From Candidatus Bathyarchaeota archaeon (GTDB taxonomy: Archaea; Thermoproteota; Bathyarchaeia; Bathyarchaeales; Bathycorpusculaceae): DNA of 64,000 nucleotides. The DNA lies in NCBI GenBank assembly GCA_963782525.1, contig CAWAKC010000002.1, forward strand, positions 1-64,000, given 5' to 3'. Positions 47,327 through 57,998 of this stretch are shown one piece after another. Within the stretch, counting starts at the first letter, position 1; the number at the start of each line of letters is the position of its first letter. The notes beneath the pieces were generated by a model. That model did not search any database, was not told where the DNA came from, and worked only from the letters and a program-made list of their open reading frames with translations. The position numbers and the translations under genes were made by a program.

Positions 47327-49783
47327 TTATGGATGTTTTCGGAGCATCAATATCGCTAATACGGCGCCGACTGCGATGATTGCAACTAATAGACCTGCGA
47401 TGGCGGGAACGAAGTATATGTCAGCCATTGATTGAGATGCTTGCGTTGGGACTGGTGTATTTGTTGGTCCTTGAATGACGTTGACGGCTGTTTCTGCTGA
47501 TGAGCTCCAATATGCGCCGCTGCCTGCGAACGTGGCTATAACTGTGTATACTCCTTGAATTGGAGGAGTCCATGCGATAGAGTATTGACCTGCTGAGTCA
47601 GTAGTTGTTTGGCCGATGTTTTGTGTATTTCCGTTAGAATCGATTGCAGTGAGGATGACTGGCACGCCCTGGGGTGTGGGTGGATTGTTGACTAAGCTTG
47701 CGTTGTTTTGCATGTAATAGTTCATCTGGTTTGTCATGTCAACGTCTGAAACTGCGGGCGTTCCTGGGCAAAATGGAGATTGATCCAGAACTTTGCCTGT
47801 TATCAAAACTTGGTCTCCAAACATCTGGTTCGCTAATGGTGTTTGAACTGTGGTTGATGTTTGTCCTTTGCCGAAGCAGTATAATTTTCCGTCGTCACCA
47901 TTGTTACCTAAGACGTAGCCATCTGCAACTGCGGTAGTTGCGATAGCGCCAGATACGTTCCAAATGAATTCTCCTGTTGTGGCGTTTATGCAGAAGAGTT
48001 TATTGAATCTGGTCATTGGTTCTCCTCGGTAGTTGGTTTGTGTGCTCCAGTAGAGTTTTCCGTCTGCTGCTACGCCTGGTTCGCTGTTGCCTGCATATGA
48101 TGATCCACCAGAGGTCCATGTGCCTTCTACTGTTTCGCCTGTGGTTCCTACACTTTGGCTCTTCCAAATCAGTGAGCCATTGGTTAAACTGAAAGCGTAG
48201 AGGTATCCGTCATATCTGAATGTGTATCTTACGTCTCCAATGCATATTGCGTAGTACGCTGGTATGTCACCCCAAGGATAGGTTCCAACGGGGGCAGTCC
48301 AGATTTGTGCACCCGTTTTTACGTCGTATCCAATGTATGAGCTTGTCACACCATCAAATTGAACATAGGGTCCACCTGGAGGTCCATATCCAAAGCTTGG
48401 CATTTGTTGAACGTTAGAGTATGTTTGGTTTGTTTGCCATAGGAAAGCTCCGTTCGACATGTTCCAGCCGAGAATTGATGCTCCACCGTTACCTTGTCCC
48501 GTGACGATTACGTTTGCATCTGGGTAAACTGCTAAAGTGTAGGTTCTGCCAGCCTGAAGCCATGCGCCAGTTTGTGCCATCGAAACGTTATACATCAATC
48601 CTGTTGTCCAATTGTTGCCTGTGACTTTGCTGTAATTCCAACACATCAAGCGGTTGGAGGATAGGAAGTACGCTAACGGGTTTCCGTCATCCCACCAAGG
48701 CGTTCCAAGGCCCGAGGGAATGTTAGTGAGTGTCTGAACTAATGCGCCAGTCATTGGATCATAAAACTGCCATGTTCCTGTGTTGACAAGGTAAGCTACC
48801 GGTATGCCTTCATTTTGTTGGGCACCGACTTGGTAGCCTCCGAGAAAATGAATGCCTCGGCTGACTGTGCCGTTAGCGGTGTATAGTAATTTGCCAGTTG
48901 TTATGTCAAGGCAGTTAAAGGTGTTTCCGTAAGGGTTGTTGTAGTAGACTTTTCCGTTTATAACTATTACAGTTTGTCCGCCATAGTAAGCGTCGCTGCC
49001 CCATTGACCGCCCATAAGTCCGCCAAGGACTTGTTGGGTAGCCCATACGATGTGTCCAGTGGTTGGACCAGTGCTATATGGATTATATTTAGTTGCTGCG
49101 TTGTTGTAACCTGAAATTAGCCAGTCACCTGCTATTGCAGCCCATTCTCTGTTGTTTATGTTAATTGGGTTGCTCCAGTATTCTGTTGGAAGCGGTGCGT
49201 ATGGTGTGCCGTCGAGTATTCCAGCGCTTACAGGGTCAGTTTGAACAGTAAATTTGAAGGGTTGTGCTACGCATGGTGTATAGTATCGGGTATCATTGTT
49301 TGATTTTTCAGTAAATGTCTGTCCTGGAAAACTGAAAGTGACACTCCAATTTCCAGCTACGGTTGGTTTGTAGATGAAGTACATTGCGCCGACTGATTCT
49401 GTCCAGCCTGGTGCGATGCCGAGATTGCCTTGAATAAAGCTCTCATCCGTCGGCATGAAAGTGTCGTTTGTTCCGTCGGGTCTTGTGAAAGTTACTGTTA
49501 CGTTAGCGTATCCCACGTTTGATGCTGCTATATCTGTGATGCTTCCGTCTGGTGATTGCGGATTGGGTTGAATCCAAAGGTTAACGACTGCAGTTTGTCC
49601 AACTCCTATTGGGTTTGGTGCAACTGAGATAAAGCCTGCAGTTTTATAATTTGGCCATGCTATAGCGGCTTGGGTGTCTAAGACCATGAATGTTGAAGAT
49701 GCCATCAGGAATGTCAGTGTTGCAATTGCTAAAAGTGCTTTAATTCTGTTATATTTTGCATTTTTGCTAAAAATATTTTGCAT
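47327..49783 (-). CDS. PQQ-like beta-propeller surface protein with C-terminal TM anchor
   Basis: Signal peptide; 'PNPIGVGQT', 'TGKLLY', 'TGAQIW', 'TGEFIW', 'LYCFGKGQTSTTV', 'FAGSGAYWSSSAET'; TM then RKHP. Confidence 0.88.
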   Translation of the reverse strand: MQNIFSKNAKYNRIKALLAIATLTFLMASSTFMVLDTQAAIAWPNYKTAGFISVAPNPIGVGQTAVVNLWIQPNPQSPDGSITDIAASNVGYANVTVTFTRPDGTNDTFMPTDESFIQGNLGIAPGWTESVGAMYFIYKPTVAGNWSVTFSFPGQTFTEKSNNDTRYYTPCVAQPFKFTVQTDPVSAGILDGTPYAPLPTEYWSNPININNREWAAIAGDWLISGYNNAATKYNPYSTGPTTGHIVWATQQVLGGLMGGQWGSDAYYGGQTVIVINGKVYYNNPYGNTFNCLDITTGKLLYTANGTVSRGIHFLGGYQVGAQQNEGIPVAYLVNTGTWQFYDPMTGALVQTLTNIPSGLGTPWWDDGNPLAYFLSSNRLMCWNYSKVTGNNWTTGLMYNVSMAQTGAWLQAGRTYTLAVYPDANVIVTGQGNGGASILGWNMSNGAFLWQTNQTYSNVQQMPSFGYGPPGGPYVQFDGVTSSYIGYDVKTGAQIWTAPVGTYPWGDIPAYYAICIGDVRYTFRYDGYLYAFSLTNGSLIWKSQSVGTTGETVEGTWTSGGSSYAGNSEPGVAADGKLYWSTQTNYRGEPMTRFNKLFCINATTGEFIWNVSGAIATTAVADGYVLGNNGDDGKLYCFGKGQTSTTVQTPLANQMFGDQVLITGKVLDQSPFCPGTPAVSDVDMTNQMNYYMQNNASLVNNPPTPQGVPVILTAIDSNGNTQNIGQTTTDSAGQYSIAWTPPIQGVYTVIATFAGSGAYWSSSAETAVNVIQGPTNTPVPTQASQSMADIYFVPAIAGLLVAIIAVGAVLAILMLRKHP

Positions 49784-49954
49784 TTTTTCATTTCCTATAT
49801 TATTTTATTAATTCCAACATATAAGAAATATTTAAAAGGTTGGTGGTAGAATGCCTACCAATTGCCAAAAAATATTTTTGGGTTTGAACACCCGTGAAAA
49901 TCATCCTCCGTCACGGATGAGTTTGAGATATGAGGTTTTATCCATTTCTCACAG

Positions 49955-50222
49955 GTTGATAGAACAACAACAGTGGCAAAATTTTGTTTGTTGTTGTTCT
50001 TTCGACTGGAATCTAAGTTGAAAGAAGAAGAAGTGCAAATTTTTCAATCTTCTTCTTCTACCCAATAGAGAATTAGGCGGCTTAAGGCCTTTCGTCTAAT
50101 TTGGAAGAACAACAGCACGCTTTTTTGTAGGATTGTGCAGTTGTTGTTCTTCTTAGATATGCTATTATGATTGAAAGAAGAAGAACTGCAATTCTGTAGG
50201 AAATATGTCCTTCTTCTTCTAA
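49955..50222 (+). repeat. Array of five inverted repeats with alternating (CAA)n/(TTG)n and (GAA)n/(TTC)n arms; putative structured ncRNA or REP-like element
   Basis: Arms 49961-72/49989-50000, 50023-33/50049-59, 50071-79/50093-101, 50104-14/50142-52, 50176-85/50211-20. Confidence 0.75.
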
Positions 50223-50374
50223 TTGTTATAGCGACATTCTTTAACATCTTGCAAATGAACGTTGATCGTTTTTTCTAAAAAGTACTGACACTTAATATCT
50301 TACAAATCAGTGCTTTTTCTAGCGCGTTTCCGCAATCAGAAGATGCTGAATTCGTAGTTTTTGTGGTTTGGGTT

Positions 50375-50719
50375 TTAGCCTGCTTCTCTTTTTGTTGTTC
50401 CACATTTTGTGCATCGAAGGAAGGTGATTGTCGAATGAATGGTTTCGTCTGCAGCTTCTACGTTCCATGTTTCGCTTTCGTTATGACCGCATGTTAGACA
50501 GACCACATTAACTGTAGGAAGTTGTCTTAGAGATGCTGCCTTTTTGTCTATGACCGCAATTTCTACTGATTTACCACTGTGCACGTTTATTTTTTGTTTT
50601 GTTTCTTCTTGATTTAGCGGCTTTTGGTATTTGCATTTTGGGCATCTAAGTGAAGGAGTGCCCTTCTTGACTACTTGGAGCAAAGCCCCGCATTGTGGAC
50701 AGAAGTTCATGTTGGTCAC
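50375..50719 (-). CDS. TFS/RPB9-like transcription factor S paralog
   Basis: 'MNFCPQCG..L', 'CPKC', 'PTVNVVCLTCGH', 'AADE', 'FLRCTKCG'. Confidence 0.85.
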   Translation of the reverse strand: MTNMNFCPQCGALLQVVKKGTPSLRCPKCKYQKPLNQEETKQKINVHSGKSVEIAVIDKKAASLRQLPTVNVVCLTCGHNESETWNVEAADETIHSTITFLRCTKCGTTKREAG

Positions 50720-57544: not shown

Positions 57545-57720
57545 TCAATAACAGTTGCAAATGATTGGTCTTTTTTCTTTTTAATGAAACAATTTTGAGA
57601 GAAGAAGTGGCAATTCAGCAGTCTTCTTCTACTCGTTAGTGATTATTCGCAGCTGGACTTTTGGTTTAAGTTGAAAGAAGAAAAAAATTTAATTTTTCCC
57701 TAATAGCAATTTTTCTTATT
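57545..57720 (+). repeat. Diverged second copy of the 49955-50222 hairpin element
   Basis: AGAAGAAG(57600-07)...CTTCTTCT(57623-30)AC; TAAGTTGAAAGAAGAA at 57667-82 identical to 50014-29. Confidence 0.6.
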
Positions 57721-57998
57721 GTAGGCTTGTACGATTTAGTCAAAACCTGTAATAATCGAGATGCTTTCATCGCAAAGATGTTTAAAACCTTTACAAGCTC
57801 CAAATAAATACGTCGTTTTCAGAGCTCTTTTACCAATCCAATTATTCAAGCCAATACCTGATAGTTCGCCTTTTAAAATCTACTAATCAGTTTTAGGTTT
57901 TTCTGAAGCGCTTGGTTGGTTGCTTGTTGTAGTGGCGAGACTACAGCATGATCTTATATCGTCAATCATCACTCTTAATATATTGGTGAATTGACCTT

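Follow-up and report, generated by a model that had tools for sequence, protein, structure and literature searches.

An array of palindromic DNA units lies in the 590-nt spacer between the stop of a TFS-like gene and the start of an 818-aa gene, within a 64,000-nt stretch (the window) of a Candidatus Bathyarchaeota archaeon genome (GCA_963782525.1, contig CAWAKC010000002.1, positions 1 to 64,000 of the forward strand). The units belong to a lineage-specific repeat family and are homologous to a hairpin frozen at synonymous sites inside a viral gene that directly precedes the gene for the large terminase, TerL. With roughly even confidence, we read the array as a cluster of such units related to a viral cis-acting site, most likely a DNA packaging (pac) site, the host arrays being copies of it. 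As the same hairpin is conserved inside a viral DNA-packaging gene, a viral signal is the probable beginning of the repeats, and those of the host are probably derived from it.

Coordinates prefixed with C refer to contigs of the 2.87-Mb genome to which the window belongs (G000), and those without a prefix to the window itself. The array comprises the following elements.

49955 to 50006, minus strand: hp1 unit, with CAA/TTG arms at 49961-49972 and 49989-50000 (extended, 18 nt, 89%).
50018 to 50063, plus strand: hp2 unit, with GAA/TTC arms at 50023-50033 and 50049-50059 (11 nt, 100%), head GTTGAAAG and tail CTACCC.
50071 to 50101, no strand: linker with a weak 9-bp hairpin, AATTAGGCG / CGTCTAATT, judged by a shuffle test and the consensus of nine arrays.
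50100 to 50156, plus strand: hp3 unit, with mixed arms GAAGAACAACA / TGTTGTTCTTC at 50104-50114 and 50142-50152 (11 nt, 100%) and TGTAGGA in the loop.
50171 to 50224, plus strand: hp4 unit, with GAA/TTC arms at 50176-50185 and 50211-50220 (10 nt, 100%), head ATTGAAAG, tail CTAA and TGTAGGAAAT in the loop.

An earlier note on this DNA, made from the letters alone, had described four triplet-armed hairpins here, and an inverted-repeat search recovered all four. The strict unit pattern, AAAGAASAASAAS-N8-32-STTSTTSTTCTA, matched three times in the window, at hp1 (49960-50002, minus strand), hp2 (50021-50060, plus strand) and hp4 (50174-50221, plus strand), versus 0.00 matches expected from 100 shuffles. 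When folded as single-stranded DNA, hp1 (z -5.6) and hp3 (z -4.8) beat all of 200 shuffles, with hp2 beaten by one and hp4 by four. A 301-nt stretch folded much more stably than its shuffles on both strands (z -6.5 and -5.6). The head (TCGAAAG) and tail (CTATC) of hp1 both lie on the minus strand, inverting it relative to hp2, hp3 and hp4, so that hp1 and hp2 form a head-to-head doublet. TTG(A/G) precedes each triplet hairpin, loops 1 and 2 share GCAAA..TTTT and loops 3 and 4 share TGTAGGA, all as the note had read them. The linker hairpin, proposed there as a fifth element, proved weak: its fold (z -1.76) was equalled by 11 of 200 shuffles, and in other arrays its sequence is kept but its structure is not. 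Both it and hp4 are missing from the consensus structure of nine arrays, in which hp3 is present.

A 321-nt query retrieved 99 BLAST matches from the organism's own genome, hp2 being the most widely matched segment and near-full arrays lying at C11:25394-25645 (82%) and C4:164019-164235 (84%). A more sensitive BLAST search gave 79 matches falling into 42 places, and a pairing-based scan identified 64 distinct strict units at approximately 30 mostly intergenic loci. Coding sequence takes up 79% of the genome in a crude open reading frame (ORF) set, against which 54 of these 64 were intergenic, and some of the ten ‘intragenic’ units sit in short ORFs made by the repeats themselves. Three intragenic units are annotated, one in a gene resembling that of the small terminase (terS-like; C6:13800) and two in D5-like genes (C1:83712 and C9:66413); beyond these and a short GAAGAAAAAA..TTTTTTCTTC hairpin in two identical copies of a ~420-aa ORF (C7:213355-213380 and C10:44987-45012; peptide ..TEEKIQLFSS..), the remainder lie in spurious-looking ORFs. 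The order of units is common to eight or nine arrays, some arrays add two hairpins past hp4, and homology between arrays begins and stops at unit borders.

Each unit spans approximately 45-60 nt and consists of a head (TTGAAAG), a triplet arm (GAA, CAA or GTA), a loop of 14-31 nt, the complementary arm and a tail, CTA(C). When 65 units from this genome and four relatives were oriented by flank, they aligned cleanly to the consensus (A)AGTTGAAAG, arm, loop, complementary arm, CTACC. Conservation of the head is circular, because the head served to orient the units; the tail is independent of the orienting, with C in 62, T in 63, A in 42 and C in 32 of the 65. The opposite strand of a unit thus opens with a partly conserved GTAG, complete in at most 32 of 65 units and with its AG belonging to the stem.

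The note had further claimed that C-to-G swaps in left arms are mirrored in right arms. This was examined with a test blind to the G/C columns, for which the head and left arm served as anchor and the right arm was chosen by A:T columns only. The right arm was present in 39 of 60 half-sites, and the cells numbered G:C 56, C:G 13 and A:T 22 against 26 non-standard ones, including five of G:T type and five of A:C type. The choice of G or C in the arms is mirrored between different units, and to that extent the claim stands. It does not carry over to positional homologues, the stems of which are nearly invariant among nine arrays (compensatory change in 1 of 34 pairs; covariation term +1.5). As positional homologues barely vary, arm covariation is a property of different unit types and not of variation within one site.

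Arms that are simple GAA, CAA and TTC runs are prone to slippage, and the note had allowed that no further homologues with preserved pairing might emerge, leaving only independent trinucleotide slippage. Relatives were found, in the genome and in the class. The three strict matches in the window exceed the shuffle expectation, the strict pattern matched 12 times (forward and reverse) in the organism's own genome whilst a reversed-pattern control matched nowhere there or in 401 class genomes, and heads, tails, loops and unit order are common to arrays. The BLAST matches, the 65-unit alignment, the class scan and the shuffle control refute slippage or chance inverted repeats, to which we assign a probability close to nil.

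The strict pattern was also present in 20 IMG/VR contigs (L227-L246), of which 14 have that same hairpin with CAA arms, four have variants resembling the family, and two are doubtful. Across 44 nt, hp1 is 82-84% identical to the viral hairpin. In contig L230 the hairpin lies inside a 150-aa ORF, the end of which overlaps the start of TerL (Pfam Terminase_6N, 5.8e-15; PHROG terL, 1.1e-36), and each of five viral records of 23-38 kb holds a single site. An alignment of eight contigs over this ORF demonstrated that the flanks vary mostly at third codon positions whilst the 48-nt hairpin is frozen, with 15 of 16 third positions invariant inside the hairpin versus 33 of 117 outside it (Fisher p 5e-7). 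The viral copy is under selection.

Homologues or remains of this gene pair were located in the window's genome at C6:13641-15513, C1:165915-166644, C7:222-1902 and C1:446822-448246, and also at C3:53882-54052, C3:76202-76980 and C5:37354-37449; the C6 copy is a truncated remnant, beyond which host-type genes follow. Of 31 genomes of the genus, 24 have TerL homologues. In the linker of the terS-like protein, at the position of the viral hairpin, the C6 gene carries a GAA/TTC hairpin, the copy at C1:166526 carries GAAGTAGTAG/CTACTACTTC, and copies in genomes G014 and G009 carry CAA and GAA arms, one G014 copy having them swapped (GTT...AAC). The arms of the viral hairpin co-vary between virus lineages, and the linker peptides switch with them (QQQ..CCCS, EEE..SSSS, VVV..TTTT and EVVD..TTTS). 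Relative to hairpin-less homologues, the hairpin segment is an insertion providing 10-14 extra linker residues. The N-terminus of the 150-aa protein is a Myb/GcrA-like three-helix domain (Timeless Myb-like profile, E 2e-4; GcrA, 0.04), followed in the predicted structure by a low-confidence linker, into which the hairpin-encoded residues fall, and by long C-terminal helices.

Chromosomal arrays hold the arm types found in the viral genes. A GTA unit lies at C3:392159, within the C3:391.9-392.5 kb array, an inverted unit of the L256 type sits beside a CAA unit at C5:37329, and a solo unit on C5 has retained terS-like coding flank of approximately 15 nt (85-88% over 62 nt). In the frame of terS, 54 of 65 host units are stop-free, versus 8 and 43 in the other two frames, and the length of 32 of the 65 is a multiple of three. 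Units were additionally found in frame in two D5_N/DUF5906 primase-helicase paralogues (C1:83453-85942 and C9:64067-66697), each with a GAA/TTC unit at the same C-terminal position. These D5-like genes sit in small islands with PIN-domain genes, and more units occur on C9 at 58.97, 70.55 and 74.4 kb; the islands could be integrated plasmids or virus satellites.

The family is narrowly distributed. Within the genus, the BLAST query matched 13 of 24 further genomes; among 16 genomes drawn from eleven other families of the order, it matched none. The strict pattern was identified in 17 of the 401 class genomes, all within one family (f1): the window's genome and 9 of 40 others in genus g1, 6 of 12 in g21 and the single genome of g31. 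A heavy array load was found in G010, G023, G012 and G001, which by LysRS identity (96, 97, 92 and 92%) are among the nearest relatives. G002, with a LysRS identity of 93%, yielded two matches, and this exception implies that array load largely, though not wholly, follows relatedness. A scan of all prokaryotes, with one genome per species, returned at least 114 stretches, and among the 80 listed, by their titles, 64 were Bathyarchaeota or Bathyarchaeia, two were ‘uncultured archaeon’ and 14 were bacterial. Among these listed matches, most of the bacterial ones may be chance terminators and a few may be genuine units. Full head, arm and tail units were seen in contigs of bacteria-labelled metagenome-assembled genomes (MAGs) (L121, L127, L178 and L176), including an Acidoferrum MAG with three and an Acidimicrobiales MAG; such contigs may be mis-binned archaeal ones.

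Comparisons with close relatives revealed turnover of arrays and of units. In G023, the TFS protein of which is 96% identical, both flanking genes are kept, 49944-50370 (427 nt) is absent and the junction holds a single copy of a 9-10 nt direct repeat. The features concerned are as follows.

49934 to 49943, plus strand: direct repeat GGTTTTATCC, the first of two that bound the 427-nt stretch absent from G023.
50223 to 50370, no strand: unique spacer of 148 nt, from the array to the TFS-like stop codon, within the absent stretch.
50371 to 50380, plus strand: direct repeat GGTTTTAGCC, the second copy, overlapping the TFS-like stop codon.

The Gly codon preceding this stop is GGC in the window and, synonymously, GGA in G023. 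Although a 10-nt direct-repeat pair bounds the indel, the enclosed 148-nt spacer has no other copy in the genome, its first 11 nt are common to G010, and the best identity between arrays over at least 200 nt is 84%; for these reasons a deletion in G023 is tentatively favoured over a recent insertion. Elsewhere, G010 and G023 both keep the C11 array in synteny, and G001 has no array between the same two genes; the C4 array has a syntenic counterpart in G023 and lies at a rearrangement point in G010, and the C1 array has syntenic counterparts in both G023 and G001. The flanks of two arrays from relatives map to separate places in the window's genome, and rearrangement points occurred at three of six examined arrays. 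Between orthologous arrays, whole units have been gained or lost, with borders at head and tail.

We propose that the hairpin, or a cruciform formed from it, would serve as a cis-acting DNA site of tailed viruses, a predicted pac signal that may be read by a Myb-type helix-turn-helix protein together with the large terminase. The chromosomal arrays would be copies of viral sites, that is, pac-site homologues. Their units turn over module by module and build up into arrays whichever way they point. In the account of phage P22 given in PMC8575938, pac sits at the centre of terS, and generalized transduction starts from pac homologues in host DNA. As described there, P22-type pac shares with the present site its status as a single cis-site in the gene directly upstream of the large terminase, its nucleotide-level selection on top of coding constraint and its host look-alikes. 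It differs in that the site here is a long perfect hairpin with a putative pac role, the protein falls in no recognised TerS family, and the host look-alikes are a structured, multi-copy, arrayed family instead of chance homologues.

Several observations weigh against a viral packaging origin. The 150-aa protein matched no Pfam, PHROG or NCBIfam family, and its predicted structure had no Foldseek match in the PDB at E <= 0.001. From position, size and architecture we infer a small terminase; a helix-turn-helix, linker and long C-terminal helices are what we take to be the layout of such proteins, a layout confirmed here by no family or fold match. A predicted complex of TerL with the terS-like protein scored 0.00, a result that says nothing either way about binding. 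In several terS-like lineages the site has no stem or weak stems, and to our knowledge known pac sites are not long perfect palindromes. Since the D5-like genes also carry units, one type of site would have to serve two gene contexts. G014 holds three close proviruses whose terS-like gene bears the hairpin, and almost no chromosomal arrays, so viruses alone do not generate arrays; copying from viral sites likewise does not account for the order of units and linkers that arrays preserve. Lastly, with gaps counted, arms of orthologous arrays were 71% identical and spacers 66% (p 0.13), whilst flanks were 88-91% identical. As the arms are no better kept than the spacers and the arrays diverge faster than their flanks, a host function is unsupported, and in the one test run host arrays evolve without detectable constraint.

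A different origin, possible though on the doubtful side, is that the units are selfish palindromes with a mobilising enzyme of their own, comparable to repetitive extragenic palindromic (REP) sequences or to Rickettsia palindromic elements (RPEs). The in-frame linker segments would then be insertions, the packaging link would be coincidental, and arrays would be pile-ups, like bacterial interspersed mosaic elements (BIMEs), formed by insertion beside existing units. The tail CTA(C), which is GTAG on the opposite strand (A in 42 and C in 32 of 65 units), accords with such an origin, as do the hp1/hp2 doublet, the clustering of units, the gain and loss of whole units and the presence or absence of arrays at syntenic sites. 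So do the triplet arms, which are stop-free in every frame and suit in-frame insertion, and the lengthened linkers of hairpin-bearing terS-like proteins; intragenic REPs, and RPEs, are mentioned in PMC3733652. However, no array pair is more than 84% identical over at least 200 nt, so there has been no recent burst, the three annotated intragenic units are all in mobile-element genes, and the freeze at synonymous sites is unexpected of a freshly inserted selfish unit.

No REP-associated tyrosine transposase (RAYT), a Y1 transposase typically flanked by REPs, was found to go with the units, which also counts against selfish mobility. The genome encodes three IS200-type Y1_Tnp (HUH) genes (C3:60238-60591, C3:287795-288148 and C7:224408-224767). 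The two C3 copies share an identical 576-nt element, and all three genes have GC-rich end hairpins that bear no relation to the GAA/CAA units. Nor do Y1 genes follow array load in a comparison of 31 genomes: the array-rich G001, G010 and G012 have no Y1_Tnp, whilst arrays are few or lacking in G002 (10 matches) and G016 (7 matches). An association with HUH/TnpA or integrase genes, suggested in the note, thus failed on the first count, and on the second no tyrosine recombinase (eight matches in the genome) lies near the unit-rich C3 stretch. No TnpB-type domain scored above the cut-off.

Insertions by an IS110-family element add to the resemblance to REPs. A single-copy 1.2-kb insertion sequence (IS) of this family (Pfam DEDD_Tnp_IS110 and Transposase_20), at C1:~218003-219231 (L045), is inserted at TGTTGTTG^TGTTC in the TTG arm of an hp1-type unit, and no copy of it sits in the syntenic arrays of G023 and G001. 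In a DNA contig from metagenome run X1, the same IS end abuts window position 49965 in hp1, and the contig is otherwise identical to 49965-50290; together, the C1 insertion and the X1 junction indicate two independent insertions into the same arm motif. The non-coding stretch that follows the transposase has GTGTTGTTGAT, a match to the left junction that could belong to a guide (bridge or seek) RNA. Targeting of the same kind by IS110-family elements is reported for bacterial REPs (PMC1525189; also PMC11208160).

Other mobile systems were considered and rejected. The note had judged the element not to be CRISPR-like, rightly so, as a crude k-mer scan of the genome turned up no array and the units vary in sequence and spacing. 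MITEs (miniature inverted-repeat transposable elements) resemble the arrays in being small, non-coding, dispersed and foldable; unlike them, the arrays have no terminal inverted repeats at their ends, no parent or autonomous IS was found, and the direct repeat is equally explained by deletion in G023. The attC sites of integrons are, like these units, imperfect intergenic palindromes with structure kept more than sequence, and in the C3 stretch units occur in nearly every spacer. The units are set apart by the lack of a tyrosine recombinase within C3:355-395 kb, by four to seven units in a row without cassettes and by arrays beside housekeeping genes such as those for TFB, eRF1 and LysRS. An intrastrand triplex of the kind described in PMC4666352 requires an R-Y-Y segment order that is absent from the array.

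Among known systems the element is nearest to REP/BIME. Of the three options put forward in the note (a structured RNA, a REP/MITE-like element, or an ordered protein-loading array), the REP-like one fits best, with dispersed, clustered, mostly intergenic palindromic units in alternating orientation. That interpretation was partly supported, and the three options did not include a selected viral hairpin. As in bacterial REP/BIME, the units are short, many-copy and mostly extragenic, form head-to-head pairs and alternating-orientation clusters with conserved linkers, fall into subfamilies by complementary stem changes, are unevenly loaded between related genomes, end in a partly conserved GTAG-like motif and are targeted by an IS110-family insertion sequence, as far as such traits are covered in PMC3733652 and PMC1525189. 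The survey of the GTAG-tagged superfamily by Di Nocera et al. (2013, PMC3733652) reports such repeats in bacterial phyla. The element is set apart by its archaeal host, AT-rich triplet stems of 10-17 bp with loops of 14-31 nt in place of GC-rich stems and short loops, an absent RAYT, a GTAG that is partly conserved with its AG paired, and a homologous copy in frame in viral genes. Most well-characterised REP-type families are bacterial, with an origin tied to RAYT transposases. RPEs are selfish palindromes of approximately 100-150 bp found in frame in protein genes, including host housekeeping genes. The present units resemble them in being both intergenic and in frame in ORFs, adding linker or loop residues to the encoded proteins, and differ in that only mobile-element genes hold the annotated in-frame copies, which sit at one position per gene family and are synonymously frozen.

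The element is palindromic DNA and not a gene, and there is no sign of strand-specific action as RNA. Orientation is independent of gene strand, with 10 forward and 10 reverse units in tandem spacers and seven forward and six reverse in convergent ones (crude gene calls); altogether, 20 oriented units lie in tandem, 13 in convergent and 12 in divergent spacers (crude ORF calls). The genes flanking arrays are unrelated, encoding TFB, eRF1, LysRS, isocitrate dehydrogenase, transporters and PQQ-propeller paralogues. The element is read as acting at the DNA level because its orientation does not depend on gene strand and the RNA evidence consists only of library contigs. These are Logan contigs from two RNA libraries (X16 and X18) with hp1- or hp2-like pieces from relatives, for which DNA carry-over is possible; none of the X17 contigs lies over the array. 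Metatranscriptome contigs of this kind cannot show transcription, strand or transcript ends.

That the array nonetheless encodes a structured RNA, either a multi-hairpin small RNA or an untranslated-region element that would stabilise or terminate the TFS-like transcript or control the 818-aa gene, is improbable. The X16 and X18 contigs and the folding of the 301-nt stretch beyond its shuffles on both strands would suit it, as would the GTAG-leading strand folding better in 43 of the 65 oriented units (worse in 20, ties in 2). The note had held that G-T pairs favour the plus strand, which is so for the window array (-98.2 versus -84.3 kcal/mol on the minus strand) and not across the 65 units. 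G:U-type cells are not in excess of A:C cells (five each), one of 34 pairs covaries among positional homologues, units take either orientation relative to flanking genes and 12 occupy divergent spacers. An Rfam scan at E up to 10, of the kind the note had called for, gave 14 matches that resemble miRNA- or snoRNA-like noise, none at its gathering score (best 23.7 bits versus 82), and a tRNA/tmRNA scan of the window found no genes. The stems have no terminator-like T-run, and sigma-70 promoters and intrinsic terminators were not above shuffle level in a scan based on a bacterial consensus, the host being archaeal.

Still less probable is the note's suggestion of an ordered protein-loading site, such as an origin, partition or chromatin-organising site. 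The near-invariance of arms among positional homologues and the recurring loop motifs GCAAA..TTTT and TGTAGGAAAT might be expected of one. With approximately 30 loci per genome, variable unit number and order, loops ranging from 14 to 31 nt, arms that drift as fast as spacers in orthologous arrays, absence at syntenic sites in close relatives and no replication or partition gene consistently next to arrays, an origin or partition role is unsupported.

The neighbouring genes and a second array in the window are as follows.

50375 to 50719, minus strand: zinc-ribbon protein (RPB9/TFS type) of 114 aa, the upstream neighbour (PF02150, 24.5 bits, just under the cut-off of 25.2).
47327 to 49783, minus strand: PQQ-propeller/Ig-like surface protein of 818 aa, the downstream neighbour.
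57596 to 57722, plus strand: second, smaller array of two degenerate units, GAGAGAAGAAG..CTTCTTCTAC and GTTGAAAGAAGAAAAAAA..TTTTTCTT, from weak BLAST matches and direct reading.

A paralogue of the 818-aa protein flanks four other unit-bearing loci. The unit-rich 30-kb stretch at C3:361-392 kb (L043 and L044), with units in nearly every intergenic spacer, resembles a variable island; its genes include three PQQ-propeller paralogues and encode an NHL-repeat protein, a catalase, a UPF0175/DUF3368 pair and a Vsr and NgoPII restriction pair.

In the main texts searched, no description of palindromic repeats in archaea or Bathyarchaeia, or of these arm sequences, was found, and a preprint on Bathyarchaeia viruses does not mention a hairpin or palindrome. 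A clade of Bathyarchaeia carries a REP-comparable family without a RAYT and with a selected homologue in a packaging-module gene of its own proviruses. The in-frame hairpin represents DNA-level selection overriding protein sequence, in that the peptides switch and the stem stays intact. Arrays mark IS110-family insertion sites and rearrangement points, which makes them useful for the assembly and population genomics of MAGs.

In a bolder version, which we consider rather unlikely, the arrays are ordered collections of packaging-signal hairpins from several resident virus lineages and other mobile elements, acting as pac-site homologues that serve as terminase decoys or transduction aids. Host units match the CAA, GAA and GTA types of terS-like genes, and some of their loops resemble those in the D5-like helicase genes. 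If this were true, arrays could divert viral terminase onto host DNA as a decoy-type, population-level defence, or could favour the packaging and transfer of flanking host DNA, as the equivalent, for transduction, of DNA uptake sequences. Should the viral hairpin be a pac site, the family would be a case of a virus cis-site seeding a chromosomal repeat family, and would offer a handle on packaging, transduction and virus-host conflict in these uncultured, abundant archaea.

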